Origin: a virus
DNA length: 64,000 nt
IMG/VR virus record: IMGVR_UViG_3300044712_002706
Location: 12,663-76,662 of that record
Strand: one strand, 5' to 3'
Shown: positions 15,001-24,000 of the stretch, in pieces
Numbering within the stretch: the stretch's first letter is position 1
Layout of the letters: each line of letters begins with the position of its first letter
Program-made: the position numbers

Positions 15001-18000
15001 CAATATTGATCTTCTCCACTTCTTCGATGGTGGATAACAGCTTTTCTAGTTCTGTCCAATCATCAGGCGAGAGAGCCTCTCTTTGGATGGGAGTTTCAAC
15101 GGATACAAGCAACTTACCGAGTGTTGAAATCAGACTCTTCCTCGGCCCAGTCAATTCTTTCCAAATCTGGTCTGTGGGTGGGAGTGTTTTTCCCTTGAAC
15201 GGATCGGAGCCCAAAGCATTTAATGTAGGCGTGATTGCATATCCAACCTGGTGCAAGGTAGCAGATAATGTGTGAAATGTTCTCCCCACATCCTTTTGTA
15301 AATCCTCGATGTTTTCCCGAAGACTCTTTTCTGCTTCACGAAGGTGTTTTTCATCAGTAATATCTTTAGAAATGCCAAAGGTACCAATAATTCTATTCTC
15401 TTCATCTCGCAAAGGCATCTTAGTGGTGGTAACCCATGTATCTGGTCGATCTAGCCAAGTTTCTTTTTCCTCTTTTGCCACCAATGATTCCCCTGTTTGC
15501 ATTATGCGTTGCTCATCCTGATATGCTTGCTCGGCATGTTCCTTGCTGAAATAGTCAAAATCGCTCTTGCCAATTGCTTCAGATGCATCATTCACTCCAA
15601 ATGCTTTGGCTTCTGAACTGGAGATTTTGATAAAACGGGATTTGGTATCTTTAAAGTAGATGTGCTCAGGAAGATTATCCAATAGGGCTTTGAGGAGATG
15701 CGAATCGGATGTAACTGAATATTCTTCATTCTCCTGCCCGATGATCTTGGGTTGTAAAGTTTCATTGGCTACTTGGTTTGTGTTGTGATTGTCTTCCATA
15801 TACATAAACCCTTTTGCTATGCTCCTGATTTTCAACCTGTTTATTTATCTATCAGCCGGGAATAGTTGAATTTGTTTTCATAGTGTGGAGAACCCGAGTT
15901 TAGACACTATGGTTTTCTGTTCCATAATTCGCGGCCTGTGCCCGAAGCCAACACAGACGGCGCTAGAACTAATTTTGTCTAAACTTGAGTTATAGAAAAC
16001 GTAGGATATTTCCCCGAAGGTTTGTGTATCGGGAAAATGCTATCTCATTAAGATTTGGCTTATATAACAAGCATTCTGCACAATGTCATAGCACTATTAA
16101 CTTCACATGCAGTACCCCCTCACAGGGCTTGATCTTCTTAACTCCAGGTGACAACCAAAAACAATAAATATATGACATCACCAATAAATACCCCAATGTT
16201 TTCTAATATTTATTATAGTTACGTACCAGAAAAAAGCAATAAAAACTTCCGCTTATTGGGCGGAAGTTTTCTTTTGGTGGAAGTATAGGAAGTCAAGGCT
16301 TTGGAGTGCTTGCGTACATGTACTCGCCGCTAGGGCTATTATTCAACCTTGATCTGTTCCAGAGCCACGGCCTTGTAATCGGCTGCTGCAGATTTCTTGA
16401 CACCGAGTTTGGCCGCTTCGAGTTCGCGCAGCGATACACTGGCCGGGTTAGGTGATTTTCGCAGGTAATCGGTCACGGCGAACAGAATGATGGGGTCAAG
16501 ACTATCCGTCCGGCGTGTCCGGGCTTGTCCGCCGGACAATGGTGTTTGTCCAGCGGACACAACCGCCTTGCGGGCCTCGGCATTGGTCAGGAGCTTCTCT
16601 GCCCGCAGCTTTTCCGCTTCCGCCTGGGCAATCAGGGCCTGCGCTTCAGCCTGGGCCTTGATCAGCGAGATTTCGTCCTGCGTCCGCTGGTGTCGGTCGG
16701 CCTTGTCTTTTTCGGCTTTGATCTTCCGTTCGTGCATGTACTCATTAACGGCAATGATCAGGTAGCCAATAATCATGCCGATGGTGGACGTGGCGAGCGA
16801 CTTGGTCTCTGCGCCGATGTAGACGGCGAAGATGACAAAGCCGGAGAGCGTGAGCGCCCCCAGTGTAGCAACGATGAAAGGCCCCAGCTCTCGCAAGGCA
16901 AACGCCCGGGCGGCGGTCTTGTAGGTCTGGAGTTCGACCCAGATCATGCCGCCCATTCCAGCTGCAGCAAGCAGGCCAGGGAAGACCGACCAGAAACTGA
17001 CATCAGCGATGCCAAGTGCCTGGGCGACGGATTTGTAGAGTTGGACGGCCAGAATGAATGCCGGCGGCGTGCCGGCGAGAACGGGGGCGATATCTTTCAT
17101 GGTTTGTTACCTACACTTTTCAAGTTGGGTATCCCTGACCGGGGGTCAGGGATACAGAGAATTGGCGGTCAAAAAGTTTCCCAGGCGTCGAATTCACCAA
17201 TTAAGTTAACCATTTCAAACAATGCACCACCAGACATGTTTTGATTGGCATCCTCCGAGACTTGGCCTTCGAATTCGGCTAATTGCCTCTGATAGTCCCT
17301 AAAAACCTCTACAAGGGAAGCGAGTCGATGAATGTTCTTTGGGGCATTATTTTTGAGCCAGTCCAATACCAGTTCCCTACCCAGAAATGCCAGATGCTCG
17401 GCTGATTCTGGATGGACGATGGGTTCTGCAAGAACGACACCCTGTTCTTTGGCTTTTTCTTGTGCAGATGTGGATGAAGTAGACATAATATGCAATCTCC
17501 TGTTGTGTATGGAATGGTCTGGCTTGAGTAGCCAGTTTGGCGCAGCTTGGCTGCGAAGTAACTCATTCTATACACATCGGCAGTGTTGTAGTCACTTACA
17601 TCCTCATGGCATGAGAAACCGGCTGCCGCCCGTTACCCAGCGCCTGGCGTTTTTCGGTAGCCAGGGCAATGGCCTGGCTCTTGCTGCTGGCCCAGACGGT
17701 CTCGATGACGCCGTCGGTGAACGAGACAGCCCACTGGCGCAGGGTAGTGGTGGCGTAGGTGGCGAGTGTTTTGGCGGTCTTGGTGGCGGTGGGGTTCATG
17801 GCTGGTTCTTGATGAGTGGAAAGTAGATGATGGATTCGGTTGGCAATGGCCCGCCATGCTCGTGGCACGGTTCGGGGTAATCCGGCGACGGCGGAAGGCA
17901 GGTGGGTTCGGAAGTCTCGTTCGGGCCGGGGTAGGCACGAGAGCCGTTGGGCTGGATGGTGCTGGCCAGCAGTGTCAGGATAATCAGGGCGGCCACCAGG

Positions 18001-21000: not shown

Positions 21001-24000
21001 TCAAAATCCTTTCATGACCAGCTTCAGCACCGCCACGAACAACAGAGCCACCGGGCCAACGCAGGTGAAGCCGACGATGGCGACGGCAAAGACGGCCGTA
21101 CCCATACTGATCACGGTGTTGGCGTAGTGGTCTGGGTCAACCGGCGCACCGCGGTGCTCGTGGATGACGACGATCTGCGGAACCGGCGACGTAGCCATCT
21201 GGCTATAAGCCGGGCGTCGGATGGGCGGCAGGTGCGCCGGTGGGACGAAGACCACCTGGGAGTCATTGTGCAGGGCGATTTGATGCTGGTTCATGATCAC
21301 ACCGGCCTTTCATCAGCGGGGTCGCTGGCATTCCAGGCAGCCCGCAGGTAGGTGCGCACCTGGCCGCCCACGGTGCAGGTGAAGCGCTCCGGGTCGCGGG
21401 ATGCCAGGGGAACAGAGAAGTATTGGCAGGTGGTGCGCCACTCCACATCGGACGGGCCGATTGCGTCGGCACGCCAGATTTGCATACGCAGCACGTTGTT
21501 GAAGACGATGACATCGATGCCCATCCCGTTTTTGAGCGGCGGCTGGCGCTGGGCCTGGCCCTGGTGCAGTACGGCGGCGTCATACATCTTCTCCAAAATC
21601 GCGGCCAGCCCGCTCTTCCTGGCCTGCTGAACGGTCTGCTGGTTTTGCATGGCAAGCATCTCCTCGATCACGGCCTGCGGAGCGACAAACTCAAAGCCAC
21701 AGCCACCTTCCGGCAGTTCACGCGTGCCAGTCACCTGCAGGCCGCGCTGATCCCATTCGGGCCGCCACAGGGCGATGGGGATTTTGATTACCAGTTCGGT
21801 GGCTGTGGTTTGGGTGCTCATCTCAGCGTCGGTTCGGTTCGAGTTCGTATTCGAGCACCCAGGCGGTGCGTTCGCTGCCCAGCAGCTCCACCAGGTAGTT
21901 GAAAGTGCGGCCGATGTTGTCCACATCGAGAATGGTGACGACCTGGCCCTTGGGCAGGATGGCTCCTTCGACGGGGATGATGTCGTCGGATAGGCGGGCG
22001 TCATCGCCTTTGAAATATTTCTGCACGGGAGCGGCTTTGATTTTCGTGGGGGGTGTGCGGGTAACCATGGGTTATTCCTTCTGCACTCGATGTTTGTGCG
22101 CAAACAGTCAAATCAAATAATCGGGGCGATGAAGCGCACATCGATCGGGGCGTTGATGGCTCCCGTCAGGATGCGTTTCACCGTGCTGGTCAGACGGCCC
22201 TCCAACCACTGGGCGGTGTAGAGCGAGGGTGCGCCGACCAGGAAGATGTTCTCGGCAGCCTGGTAGCCAAGCGCCACGGTGTCGGCGACGAAGTCGGCGA
22301 AGGTGCCGCGGGGCATCTCGACCCGCAACTGCTCAGTCACCGTCATCCACGCCCATTCGAGCGTTCGCCCGCCAGGAAGTGGGTCTGAACGTCCCGTTCC
22401 GGGGTAGTTTGGGTCGGCATTTTCTTCCGCAAGCGCTGCCTGATGAACCGACTCCGGTTCGGGTTCGAGAACTTCGTCTTCGAGTTCTTCCTTGGGTAGG
22501 TTGGCCCGTTCGAGAACGGCGGCGGGGATGTAGCGGCGATGGGCTTCGGGCGAATAGTAGGTCGCTTCGGGGTAGTAGCGCTTCTGGATGTGGAGCGGCA
22601 CCACGGAAGCGGGAAAACGTACCTTGCTTCGTGAGTCATAACAATAGGCCACATTAGCCAAAACATCTGAGAGACTGAAACCGACTTGCACCGCCGTCTC
22701 AGTGGCACGTTCGGCATCTTTCACCCCCACTGCACGTAGTAGATCGAGGATCGAGGAGGATGGATTAAAGAGAATCTGATCTTTTAAAGATTCTTGATCC
22801 TCCTCCTCATCCAGACTAAACGACAAATTTGTCGTATACGCCACTTTTTGAGACAAAGCGACATTTTTGTCGTTTAGTGATTTTCCGGTCAACTTTTCAT
22901 CGGGGATGGGAAATCGCTCTGGAAAGAGAAAACGAACGCAGCCGTTTCGGTGGGTCTCTGAACGCAGCCAGGACAACCGTTCCAGGGCTTGCACATAGCG
23001 TTGATAGGTGCGCATTTCCAACCCGAGGAAATCCAGCAGCTCCTTGACGTCCATTTCAGGGGTGAAACGGTACTTGGTGTTCCATGCCAGGCCGTACACG
23101 GAGCCAAAGAAGTCCTTCAGAGAGGAGGGCACGGTACGGGCGTAGACGATGGTGCTGGGGATGGGAATGTAGCGGGGTGGTGTAGTGATGGTCATAGCTT
23201 CAATGTGAGTTGGACGAGATGGGGTGCGGTGATGCGAAGATCGGCAGCCAGGTCAACGAGCAGAATCAGCATCTCATCCGCAGCCTGGTCGTGGGCGAGA
23301 CGCAAGTCCCCGTCTGTTTGGGGGAGGCGTCCCGACAGGACAGCAGCCATACCACGACCTTTGGGCGTGTTGGACAAGATGATCCACTGGTGACCTGGCT
23401 CGATGGTCGGGTCAGCTTCGGTGGTGATTTTGAGTTCTGGCGTGTCGAGGATGACAGCCATTGATTAACCTCCTGTGATTTGCTACAATAAGTCCGTGAA
23501 GGTGAAACTTTTCCAGGGTATGCACCTCCACGGTTTGCTGTTGGGCCAGACCTATCTTGATAGGATTCTGGCCTTTTTCTTGCACCCGGTCTGAGTCCTA
23601 TATCTGACTAAGGAGAACAAAAATGCAAGAACATCAAACCCAAACTCAAGCCCATGTTGAGCACATGATGCGCACGCCAACCTTGGCCGATGCCGTAGAT
23701 ACATTTGTGCGTCTGGAGCTTGAACTCAACGACCGACCGGCGACAACGATCCGTTGGTATAGGATGCGGCTGGATGCAATGTCATCCCATATTGGGCCTG
23801 AGATGCCCCCGAATATGGTGATGGACGTTGACCTGCTGGAGTTCATGTCAGAGCTCAGACGGCGTGAGGTGCGCTATGAAAACGCACCGAGGCCGAAAGA
23901 GACTGGCAAGCTTTCCGTGAATACGCTGCGGGGATATGCCAAGGCGCTACGCCGGTTCTGGGCGTGGATGGAGCGAAAGAAATTCACCGAGGACAATCCT

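Follow-up and report, generated by a model that had tools for sequence, protein, structure and literature searches.

The region at 16339-24663 of the window (the whole analysed stretch of 64,000 nucleotides) is best explained as the int-proximal arm of a temperate siphophage, prophage A, itself one of two diverged tandem phage copies joined at a tRNA-Leu core, in which one operon couples a replication initiator to a membrane DNA-translocation module. Our leading, still tentative reading of this module is a sequence-directed pump for double-stranded DNA that moves the element across membranes or septa, with a function in segregation as the main rival. The data support Anaerolineae-type bacteria as hosts of this tailed phage, and the host clade, Anaerolineaceae, agrees with the Chloroflexota host proposed in a preliminary description of this DNA.

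Gene content of the phage arm

The operon (16339-23461) runs leftward, and all genes described for it are present on the minus strand: three small transmembrane (TM) proteins and an FtsK/SpoIIIE ATPase downstream of the initiator, followed, as the preliminary description had it, by further small membrane or secreted proteins and a 4TM/coiled-coil/HTH protein. The features are:

16241..16271, no strand: bidirectional terminator hairpin closing the operon (repeat I19)
16339..17100, minus: 253-aa protein with four hydrophobic or TM segments, a charged coiled coil and a C-terminal helical HTH-like domain
17169..17495, minus: 108-aa acidic soluble protein, no family
17596..17799, minus: 67-aa soluble protein, kept in the second phage unit (63806-64000, 56% identity)
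17796..18035, minus: 79-aa Pro/Cys-rich protein, N-terminal signal or TM segment as read from the sequence (ORF 17796-18101)
18038..18325, minus: 95-aa protein, CxxC Zn-ribbon-like motif, TM segment at the C-terminus
18342..18419, no strand: array of repeats with a hairpin, lying across the stop codon of the translocase gene, with three copies of GTGCTACTACT (two direct, one inverted)
18379..20469, minus: FtsK/SpoIIIE-family translocase (PF01580, E 3.9e-9; phrog_1358, E 9e-23)
20384..20773, minus: 129-aa two-TM protein with a short Ala-rich ectodomain, overlapping the translocase gene from upstream
20763..20999, minus: 78-aa protein with two hydrophobic segments, from translation
21001..21300, minus: 99-aa protein with a C-terminal TM segment, from translation
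21297..22103, minus: 268-aa ORF with a TTG start, no known family
22113..23195, minus: replication initiator, 360 aa, with a C-terminal DnaA_N-like domain
23192..23461, minus: 89-aa protein, first operon gene, divergent from int, no family matched
23623..24663, plus: tyrosine integrase (PF00589, E 1.6e-19), divergent from the operon and adjoining the att core
24771..24811, plus: 5' half of a tRNA-Leu gene, the att core and junction of the two tandem phage units

The initiator matches Pfam DnaA_N weakly (E 0.0036), and the ESM Atlas links it by its features to DnaA_N/Phage_rep_O clusters (score 0.95). Within its gene, an AT-rich 26-nt direct repeat and 20-nt inverted repeat (D3/I2, 22813-22878) are, judged from sequence, a possible replication origin. 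The 89-aa protein is possibly a regulator or excision factor, and the true start of the 268-aa ORF may lie later than the TTG. In six phage loci and L033, two-TM mini-proteins occupy the position upstream of the translocase that the 129-aa protein holds here; no sequence match to them was found, nor any sequence conservation of the small membrane proteins between loci. The 95-aa protein has a weak TraR-type zinc-finger match (E 0.031). ORF 17596-18054, first read as one gene, is in fact two. At the tRNA-Leu junction ARAGORN found no complete tRNA; in four runs, contigs agree with the window over 24771-24818, beyond which they diverge from it and read into a tRNA variable/T arm. The same phage arm carries type I restriction-modification (R-M) genes, a defence-type cargo.

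Architecture and relationships of the translocase

The translocase, first read as 696 aa from GTG 20469, likely starts at ATG 20406 (675 aa), in agreement with the database copy and the alignment. A signal- or lipobox-like N-terminus is followed by a Q/A/T-rich helical ectodomain of ~170 aa, a TM segment (~206-232), a linker domain, the ATPase and a C-terminal HTH-like domain. The lipobox-like signal, long stalk, TM segment and C-terminal HTH noted earlier are thus all borne out, with the lipobox of this copy, TIAC, being non-canonical. By our own pattern, a lipobox-like Cys occurs in 16 of 23 family members, and all 23 homologues combine an N-terminal hydrophobic segment or lipobox with a second TM segment at ~140-260; Walker A K401 and Walker B D495-E496 are invariant among them. 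In the AF2 model, residues 24-45 form a helix, residues 76-144 and 153-239 form long ones, the second of which contains the TM segment, the ATPase core has pLDDT >90 and a three-helix domain at the C-terminus (helices at 637-687) is confidently predicted.

Several comparisons support a DNA-translocase-type FtsK relative. Foldseek ranks TcpA (1.9e-16) and FtsK (7e-15) before EccC/EssC (1e-12 to 1e-9) and HerA (3e-8). A quick maximum-likelihood tree unites the fused and split forms of the family (SH-aLRT 87) and places them next to TcpA/TcpB (90), not chromosomal FtsK. Set against the families named earlier for comparison (TraB, TcpA, EssC and HerA), the ATPase is most like TcpA, together with FtsK. 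Membership of the TraB family did not hold up: pIJ101 Tra, the sole TraB-type protein tested, reaches 18 bits with the family HMM (TcpA, 66.6; FtsK, 66-98) and lies elsewhere in the tree on a very long branch. The whole 76.6-kb record contains no match to relaxase (PF03432), VirB4-like AAA_10 or DUF2637, consistent with the reported lack of relaxase and VirB4 in the window, and neither relaxase nor AAA_10 occurs among the best 25 of 44 neighbour families.

The 253-aa protein, with an A/E/K/R/Q-rich helix at 138-181, shares the tripartite layout of pIJ101 SpdB. Homology to SpdB was not detectable (hhalign probability 0.9%; no Pfam match), and the DUF2637/Spd search proposed earlier thus came out negative, the layout alone being common. 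ESM Atlas returned low-score leads to SpdB_N (0.81) and DUF2637 (0.76) clusters, and Foldseek pairs it with phiC31 Gp25 without significance (E 3.5). Besides the window, four other loci encode a protein of this 4TM/coiled-coil/HTH type near the translocase, with analogues of 240-247 aa in L002/L004, L017 and L003. SpdB2 homologues on actinophages have been proposed to aid the spread of phage DNA (PMC4447253).

Repeat arrays at the translocase gene end

The three clustered copies of GTGCTACTACT compare with 0.27 matches expected across the whole window, and five of the six window occurrences of the 8-mer core CTACTACT, counting both strands, lie at the translocase gene end. A short-repeat array is found at this position in 16 of the 18 loci where the gene end is readable: related CTACT-type direct and inverted repeats in L001, L002, L003, L004, L014 and L016, and three to seven direct CAAACC-type repeats at ~9-10-bp spacing, just upstream of parM, in split-type loci (degenerate in L028). 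The placement resembles that of Streptomyces clt by analogy: in pWTY27, clt takes in 16 bp inside traA and the 159 bp next to it, and TraA binds its direct and inverted repeats (PMC3583192), and the TraB C-terminus recognises 8-bp repeats of clt (PMC4447253, PMC5365140). Alternatively, the phage-type arrays could be RNA hairpins (18342..18419 folds at -35 kcal/mol, z -3.1, without a U-tract), and the split-type arrays could be a parC-like centromere or an operator for the following ParM gene.

Linkage to virion genes and a split form without them

The translocase family comprises ~280 clusters at 50% identity, none of them named. Few genomes carry it: in a sample of 301 from the class, one did. 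A tblastn search of 50,697 phage records gave only three remote matches, which cover 27% of the protein at 28-29% identity. The module is part of the phage. In Anaerolineaceae MAGs, homologues adjoin primase, terminase and portal genes, and in 37.6-kb viral genomes, 96% and 99% complete by CheckV, fused-type homologues have primase on one side and terminase/portal genes on the other. Linkage to virion genes, as formerly claimed, is supported, and the suggested synteny survey of Anaerolineae, prophage B included, yielded these MAG neighbourhoods and a ParM-like gene in prophage B.

In the split form, which also occurs in an Anaerolineaceae MAG, a lipoprotein-stalk-TM protein is encoded separately from a soluble ATPase-HTH protein, in the order HTH_17, lipoprotein-stalk-TM protein, ATPase-HTH, ParM, small protein, Rep and integrase. 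No virion genes were found in these loci, where the pump is the sole candidate transfer function seen. Because it is thus also the core of small virus-free integrative elements, the pump may move DNA directly between cells, much as in Streptomyces plasmids.

Comparison with known systems

The module resembles the Streptomyces TraB/Tra systems (pSVH1, pIJ101, TraA of pWTY27 and AICEs) in its membrane-associated FtsK-like ATPase, the domain order of membrane part, ATPase and C-terminal HTH (pIJ101 Tra has PF01580 and a MarR-like HTH), the accompanying Rep and Int, several small membrane proteins after the translocase, the lack of relaxase and T4SS and a short-repeat array at or next to the gene's 3' end, as in clt (PMC4447253, PMC3583192). 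It differs in lacking a specific sequence relationship to Tra, in its lipoprotein-type anchor and long extracytoplasmic helical stalk, in its Chloroflexota host, in being embedded in a tailed phage and in its split two-gene forms. Of the TraB/Spd-like module proposed in the preliminary description, the FtsK-type translocase, the neighbouring initiator and the virion linkage stand, whereas kinship to pIJ101 Tra or SpdB is not supported and no DUF2637 match was found.

The best structural match to the ATPase is TcpA (target TM 0.64), which Clostridium perfringens pCW3 encodes as its FtsK-like coupling protein; it is also the nearest group in the tree and shares the N-terminal membrane anchoring. 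However, it acts with the relaxase TcpM and a T4SS-like Tcp apparatus, neither present here, and has neither a C-terminal HTH nor a long ectodomain. SpdB/SpdB2, with reported homologues in phiC31 and VWB, resemble the 253-aa protein in their four TM segments, coiled coil, C-terminal domain and location near the translocase, but low-score language-model leads are the sole pointers to kinship. Chromosomal FtsK shares the ATPase core (24-26% identity in a structure-based alignment) and the combination of membrane anchor, motor and DNA-reading C-terminal domain, whereas the phage protein lacks the FtsK 4TM, alpha and gamma Pfam domains present in all FtsK matches, resides on mobile elements and has a local, not genome-wide, motif. 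Other phages, too, encode FtsK/SpoIIIE-like ATPases without an assigned role (phrog_1358; Bacillus and Streptomyces phages), often near replication genes, and a role in replication has been guessed (PMC11536984). Among phage records, tblastn found only the three remote matches given above. We know of no description of a lipobox-stalk-TM-ATPase-HTH architecture, partner genes and repeat array for such proteins.

A candidate DNA pump and its alternatives

Under the pump reading, induction would lead to expression of the operon along with Rep. The N-terminus would serve as signal or lipoprotein anchor of the translocase, placing the ~170-residue helical stalk outside the cytoplasmic membrane and, via the single TM helix, ATPase and HTH in the cytoplasm; the small two-TM proteins and the 4TM/coiled-coil/HTH protein are its likely partners. 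The ATPase would form a hexameric ring, as in FtsK, TraB and TcpA, the HTH would load it onto the short repeats where its own gene ends, and double-stranded copies of the element would be pumped across a membrane or septum to the next cell along the filament. We infer such cell-to-cell transfer as Streptomyces TraB achieves it together with Spd proteins, with no relaxase or T4SS involved.

The main rival, which we consider rather unlikely, is a segregation or maintenance pump that acts within one cell lineage like FtsK/SpoIIIE: excised replicating copies would be cleared or pumped through the closing septum, both filament daughters would inherit them, and the translocase would work with, or replace, ParM-type partition genes. 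A ParM-like gene directly follows the ATPase in split-type loci, another occupies the position of the 108-aa and 253-aa genes in prophage B, and ParA/ParB domains are present in phage neighbourhoods of the family; these neighbours fit both segregation and transfer. Chromosomal FtsK also provides the best sequence matches outside the family (66-98 bits), and the CAAACC arrays occupy the position of a parC centromere, but ParM loci without the ATPase have no such arrays upstream of ParM. Moreover, the motif is concentrated at a single site and lacks the dispersed, polar distribution of KOPS, the tree places the ATPase with TcpA rather than FtsK, and septal clearing needs neither a long lipid-anchored ectodomain nor extra membrane partners.

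It is improbable that the module serves exclusion, defence or host takeover, blocking or expelling the incoming DNA of competitors or manipulating host DNA without moving its own element. The PHROGs category of FtsK-like phage proteins ("moron, auxiliary metabolic gene and host takeover"), a weak PADLOC mad8 match (E 4.9e-7) and the R-M cargo on the same arm point this way; however, the gene lies in the replication operon, outside the variable cargo, is kept in phages whose cargo differs and forms the core of elements that also bear Rep, Int and ParM. A predicted C-terminal DNA-binding domain next to a repeat array on its own element, and the much poorer structural matches of HerA-type defence ATPases, likewise argue against it.

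Still less probable is a separate AICE-like element, consisting of int, Rep and FtsK, which would share the tRNA-Leu site with the adjacent prophage but have no link to the virion genes. Because Int, Rep and an FtsK-like gene are clustered next to the att core, the arm does fall under the working definition and search criterion of AICEs (PMC3218068), and loci without visible virion genes contain homologues of Int, Rep, ParM and the translocase (24-29% identity for the small-element integrases; weak homology of the initiator to Rep of L028). Against this stand the nearly complete 37.6-kb viral genomes, the lack of any other recognised initiator in the phage early region, the small genes flanking the variable cargo (12079-12291 and 17596-17799), whose order is kept after the tail genes of the second unit, and a 6.7-kb contig covering 11966-18712, which Logan assembled separately from what is probably the source run. 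Lastly, protein secretion (T7SS/EssC-like) or a HerA-type nuclease-helicase system is highly improbable: EssC/EccC and HerA appear lower in the Foldseek list, a marginal NCBIfam EssC match exists (E 0.095) and the small membrane proteins around the ATPase recall T7SSb loci, but searches revealed neither an FHA domain nor a WXG100 substrate nor a NurA/Sir2 partner, the protein has one ATPase domain and a C-terminal HTH, and TcpA and FtsK are far better matches.

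The translocase operon and its central protein

The genes that the preliminary description had listed downstream of the phage initiator (small membrane proteins, an FtsK/SpoIIIE-type ATPase and a 4TM/coiled-coil/HTH protein) were all found on the minus strand from 23461 to 16339, and a strong bidirectional terminator at 16241-16271 closes the operon. The absence of a relaxase and of VirB4 was likewise confirmed, as PF03432 and PF12846 (AAA_10) have no match in the whole record. Nor was DUF2637 (PF10935) found in the whole record at E up to 1, and the small proteins of the operon gave nothing significant in Pfam, PHROGs, NCBIfam or PADLOC.

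Main features of the translocase and integrase region (window positions)
18379-20469, start probably at 20406, minus strand: translocase, matching FtsK_SpoIIIE (PF01580) at E 3.9e-9 and phrog_1358 at E 9e-23
22113-23195, minus strand: replication initiator (Rep), in the same operon as the translocase
23623-24663, plus strand: tyrosine integrase, followed by a terminator and then by the 5' half of a tRNA-Leu gene
24771-24811: 5' half of the tRNA-Leu gene, the att core at the tandem junction of prophages A and B

The architecture of the translocase is constant across an alignment of 23 homologues (590-712 aa): an N-terminal segment is followed by 150-200 Q/A/T-rich residues and a TM helix, behind which come a conserved linker, the ATPase and a conserved C-terminal domain. 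All 23 proteins carry an N-terminal hydrophobic segment or lipobox plus a second TM, and in 16 of them the N-terminal segment ends in a lipobox-like Cys, the window copy having the non-canonical motif TIAC. The FtsK/SpoIIIE ATPase domain is intact, with K401, D495 and E496 invariant in every aligned sequence. In the AF2 model (pLDDT 73 on average, above 90 in the ATPase), the ectodomain and TM form two long helices, and three confident helices lie at the C-terminus.

Relationships of the ATPase

Sequence searches against solved structures matched FtsK and TcpA about equally, and Foldseek ranked TcpA of pCW3 first (1.9e-16), followed by the FtsK motor (7e-15), EccC/EssC (1e-12 to 1e-9) and HerA (3e-8). 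A family profile built from the ATPase and the C-terminal part scored chromosomal FtsK at 66-98 bits, TcpA at 66.6, TcpB at 35.7 and pIJ101 Tra at 18; the FtsK scores are favoured because these proteins are the best matches chosen from a huge database. Three groups, each recovered as one side of a branch, were obtained in a quick maximum-likelihood tree, which is only indicative because it contains no EssC or HerA rows and a single TraB-type row (pIJ101 Tra). There the family encoded by one gene, as in the window (fused type), and that encoded by two genes (split type) join with an SH-aLRT of 87 and are then joined by TcpA/TcpB (90), FtsK being set apart and pIJ101 Tra placed with FtsK on a branch of length 4.9. 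The sole TraB/Spd reference throughout was pIJ101, whose Tra, used as query, matched mostly FtsK at 26-28% identity. In tblastn searches of annotated phages and plasmids, the translocase returned just remote P-loop-level matches.

The earlier interpretation is partly supported: the evidence converges on an element-encoded membrane dsDNA translocase, as had been proposed, but membership in the TraB sequence family is not supported, given the 18 bits of pIJ101 Tra and its separation from the family in the quick tree. Streptomyces TraB and the translocase share the FtsK/SpoIIIE ATPase with intact Walker A and B motifs and the N-terminal membrane association. For the long ectodomain predicted here, we know of no like topology described for TraB. 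The matched chromosomal FtsK proteins carry PF13491, PF17854 and PF09397 (4TM, alpha and gamma), whereas family members have PF01580 alone. Coupling proteins of the TcpA/VirD4 type work alongside a relaxase and either a VirB4-like ATPase or T4SS genes, but the record gave no match to PF03432 or PF12846.

A regular component of the phage lineage

Five IMG/VR contigs contain close homologues of the translocase, and so do two Anaerolineaceae MAGs, each with two copies. The neighbourhoods of these homologues contain portal, large and small terminase, DnaG-type primases and VapE/D5/Prim-Pol replication proteins as well as ParA/ParB, methylases and integrases; no relaxase or T4SS family is among the 25 most frequent of the 44 matched neighbour families. 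The terminase and portal genes of two phage loci (L016 and L002) lie 4-5 kb downstream of the translocase gene, and two viral contigs with a homologue are 37.6-kb genomes that CheckV rates as 96% and 99% complete. In the window, the translocase operon holds the sole recognisable replication initiator. Given the homologues beside virion genes and the operon shared with the initiator, the translocase block is a regular part of this phage lineage and no chance neighbour.

The family is rare in genomes, with a strong match in one of 301 sampled genomes of the class, but not in metagenomes. These yielded 280 representatives of 50%-identity clusters at E ≤1e-30, mostly full-length proteins of 600-700 aa, and none of the ten members looked up among these 280 has a name. 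At about 280 clusters at 50% identity, and in fused and split forms, this constitutes a newly defined, unnamed protein family.

Two-gene relatives in loci without virion genes

A metagenome search with the ParM-like gene of prophage B, from which the window's own record was left out, returned 21 loci. In at least 10 of these, a soluble FtsK-like ATPase of 448-459 aa with the same C-terminal domain as the translocase precedes ParM. A protein of 311-376 aa in turn precedes the ATPase, with overlapping stop and start codons, in all six loci examined in full; it is made up of a lipobox and a Q/A/T-rich ectodomain, followed by a TM helix and the same post-TM linker as in the fused family. A profile of the fused family's N-terminus detects these proteins with E-values of 1e-22 to 5e-38, and its low-bias TM-plus-linker part by itself does so at 6e-9 to 1e-15. 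Therefore, the 696-aa protein of the window is the fused form of a two-gene system.

The gene order of the integrative split-type loci (L023-L031, L033 and L045-L047) is conserved. Fuller loci such as L025 and L030 present an HTH_17 excisionase-like gene (seen in L025), the lipoprotein, the ATPase, ParM, a small protein, Rep and a tyrosine integrase, at times with a two-TM mini-protein before the lipoprotein and with one or two replication-type genes behind the integrase. Host-type genes flank the loci on the visible sides, and no tRNA genes were found flanking them. As the contigs are cut, the element ends are not fixed, and a size of about 9 kb is an estimate from combined loci. Translocase, Rep, Int, ParM, the small protein and a primase-helicase part are common to these loci and the phages, and one Anaerolineaceae MAG carries both split-type copies and the fused phage type. 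Terminase, portal and capsid genes were not found in the stretches fetched, and a scan of IMG/VR that detects close relatives only did not find the split-type ATPase.

Clustering of Int, Rep and FtsK genes is the criterion that has been used to find AICEs (PMC3218068). By the same criterion the split-type loci are AICE-like elements, and the int-proximal arm of the phage, which likewise clusters Int, Rep and translocase with int at the end near att, is homologous to them. AICEs are small (about 9-24 kb), lack virion genes and reside in actinobacterial hosts. The window element differs in being a tailed phage (TerS, TerL, head, tail and TMP genes) of an Anaerolineaceae-type host; the split-type loci resemble AICEs in having no virion genes in the stretches fetched, but are non-actinobacterial where the host is known.

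A repeat array at the end of the translocase gene

The motif GTGCTACTACT occurs three times, twice direct and once inverted, across the translocase stop codon (18342-18419), with 0.27 matches expected in the whole window and no further exact copy. Arrays are present at 16 of 18 readable translocase gene ends. Related arrays occupy the same place in the phage loci and vary in copy number and orientation: ACTTCTACC is present in three direct copies and one inverted copy in L002 and as two plus two in L004, L001, L003, L014 and L016 have CTACT-type pairs at the gene end, and no clear array was found in L017 and L018. The repeat score is moderate, as five of eight translocase gene ends reach at least 38 against a 95th percentile of 50 for the background of other gene ends.

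Split-type ATPase genes end in three to seven direct CAAACC-type repeats with a spacing of about 9-10 bp (degenerate in L028), which within each locus are nearly confined to the gene end. They are absent 5' of ParM in the two loci without the ATPase. In both types, the repeats fall partly within the coding sequence of a low-complexity T- or Q-rich tail behind the HTH.

CAAACC-type arrays at the 3' end of the ATPase gene, just 5' of parM (locus positions; further loci have such arrays)
L024: 4480-4633
L025: 2560-2700
L027: 9850-9960
L030: 2480-2650

[quoted passage not shown] Where TraB reads its short clt repeats with a winged HTH, the translocase has a predicted three-helix C-terminal domain and an array nearby. 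The CAAACC-type arrays could be a clt-like site or a parC-like centromere. Alternatively, the arrays may act as an RNA processing or stability hairpin, as an operator or, in the split type, as a parC centromere for ParM. As RNA, the GTGCTACTACT array forms a hairpin of -35 kcal/mol (z -3.1) without a U-tract; RNAalifold gave a weak consensus over seven hairpin regions (-3.55 kcal/mol), because MAFFT misaligns the variable loops.

Probable partner membrane proteins

What the small membrane proteins around the translocase keep from locus to locus is their kind and position, not their sequence. Six phage loci and the split-type locus L033 have, directly 5' of the translocase, a protein with two TM segments and a short A/Q-rich ectodomain, in one case with a lipobox; these proteins look like miniatures of the translocase N-terminus. 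Their positional counterpart in the window is a protein of 129 aa.

The last gene of the operon encodes a 253-aa protein with four hydrophobic segments and a charged coiled coil; its C-terminal domain is helical. Proteins of this kind (240-253 aa, 4TM, coiled coil, C-terminal HTH) are encoded no more than about 3 kb from the translocase, both in the window and in L002/L004, L017 and L003. SpdB of pIJ101, where the gene order is tra, spdA, spdB, orf66, kilB, has the same tripartite layout. The kinship with the Spd family that had been proposed was not recovered, however, since hhalign against 20 SpdB sequences gave a probability of 0.9%. Searches at E up to 5 returned no Spd Pfam match (SpdB_N PF27080 or DUF2637 PF10935), in a Pfam copy that apparently lacks PF27080. 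Low-scoring language-model neighbours include SpdB_N (0.81, 0.77) and DUF2637 (0.76), together with numerous phage clusters that have an HTH at the C-terminus. Its AF2 model (mean pLDDT 62, TM part of low confidence) found nothing in BFVD at E ≤0.001, phiC31 Gp25 appearing at a non-significant E of 3.5. For the idea of partner-aided spread of phage DNA, actinomycetes offer a precedent.

Possible functions of the translocase

Taken together, the evidence agrees with a membrane-embedded, sequence-directed dsDNA translocase of the replication/integration backbone, common to phages and to loci without virion genes. The best reading, which we put forward tentatively and by analogy, would be a TraB-like transfer of DNA between cells. 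It is ranked first because the repeat motif is local and not dispersed, because the ectodomain and membrane partners exceed the needs of septal clearing, because the ATPase leans to TcpA and because the virus-free elements show no other visible route of spread. The system would then work like the TraB/Spd families without being a member of either. A broader version is more doubtful: Chloroflexota (Anaerolineae) might own a relaxase-free dsDNA transfer in which a lipid-anchored FtsK-like pump, with its extracytoplasmic helical stalk and small membrane partners as septum or envelope conduit, is used by small integrative, plasmid-like elements as well as by temperate tailed phages.

Segregation, in which DNA is moved just between daughter compartments, is somewhat unlikely; were the pump to serve it alone, it would still be a new accessory of phage-plasmid-like maintenance. 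Exclusion or host takeover is clearly less probable. Slightly less probable again is a separate element, with the region unlinked to the virion genes, an outcome that the preliminary description had named as contrary to its proposal: homologues lie near terminase and portal genes in near-complete viral genomes, and the block is a regular part of the lineage. Least probable by far is a role in secretion or of the HerA type. EssC has multiple ATPase domains with FHA, and HerA a HAS barrel with a NurA/Sir2 partner, whereas the translocase has a single ATPase domain and an NCBIfam EssC match of E 0.095; no partner genes of either type were found, including among the 25 most frequent of the 44 neighbour families. 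Grouping with HerA or T7SS ATPases, likewise named beforehand as contrary to the proposal, was not seen, and both rank below TcpA and FtsK in Foldseek.

To our knowledge, single-protein dsDNA conjugation by TraB is established solely for actinomycetes, and a literature search returned nothing comparable for Chloroflexi or Anaerolineae. If transfer between cells is indeed the function, TraB-like transfer would have arisen, or spread, more widely than thought, in a second phylum of filamentous bacteria. The phage would have a second route beside its virions, direct passage from cell to cell along the filament, by which a tailed phage could, independently of virions, spread or lysogenise an entire filament. 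The conserved cis repeat array paired with an HTH makes the idea experimentally approachable.

Two tandem prophages and their cargo

The window covers bases 12663-76662 of a 76,662-base record that IMG/VR classes as a provirus (CheckV completeness 81%), and self-comparison of the record revealed that one phage type is present twice, as diverged tandem copies. At contig positions 1-14870, the head-to-tail genes correspond to window positions 43529-57684 with 58-92% protein identity, and behind the tail genes the order is kept for two small genes (12079-12291 with 58237-58449, and 17596-17799 with 63806-64000). Contigs from four public runs match the tRNA-Leu half exactly and then continue into the tRNA variable arm and T arm where the window diverges; therefore 24771-24811 is the att core, with prophage A on the left and prophage B on the right. 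Within 24735-24811, a TATAAT box precedes the tRNA half, whose anticodon loop has TAA. What the phage carries is apparently the promoter-proximal half of this gene instead of the usual 3' part, and the outer attR is the only place where an intact tRNA-Leu would be expected. No excision or circle junction was seen among public-run contigs aligned to 9000-28500; a 21-letter joint from 9656 to 24777 was disregarded, being present in a single contig of one run (X3).

Prophage B codes for TerS, TerL, major head, major tail, MuF and tape measure proteins. Its TerL region (34657-36313) consists of two overlapping ORFs in different frames, of which 34657-35562 corresponds to positions 288-497 of phrog_38 and 35516-36313 to positions 483-712; a single 486-aa ORF spans both parts in L002, and the split could be a frameshift, be it programmed, mutational or introduced by the assembly. 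A 600-aa protein whose gene separates the terminase region from the portal region (37486-39288) has an N-terminal Laminin_G_3 (concanavalin-like) domain, and its gene contains 66-nt tandem repeats (38139-38784) and 27-nt repeats (39132-39238). The view of prophage B stops inside its leftward arm at position 64000, the record end, which is exactly the start codon of a conserved 64-aa gene. The same proteins are on record in a 100,131-base parent contig, and the IMG/VR provirus call probably cuts the element short.

The leftward arm of prophage A holds variable cargo (2417-15835), including a 662-aa TPR protein, a PAS histidine-kinase-like protein (14228-15835) within a low-GC block (0.42-0.44) and a complete type I R-M system:
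3835-6792: HsdR
6795-8102: HsdS
8099-10027: HsdM

In prophage B, the cargo position is taken up by a D12 methylase, an ABA-sandwich protein and the ParM-like gene. A 37-nt element with the core AGGAAGTCAAGG occurs three times (12325-12361, 16272-16308 and 58483-58519). Two copies sit behind a conserved 70-aa gene, one per phage unit, and the third forms the border of the low-GC cargo and the translocase operon, so that cargo from 12361 to 16272 is bracketed by two copies. Within the initiator gene, at 22813-22878, an AT-rich 26-nt direct repeat and a 20-nt inverted repeat (90% complementary) fall in the linker separating the N- and C-terminal parts of the initiator and may, by analogy with lambda O, be a replication origin. 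Finally, ATGTAACATTC is present in two direct copies 31 bp apart (63766-63811) just 5' of the ParM-like gene of prophage B, a pair that may be a centromere or an operator.
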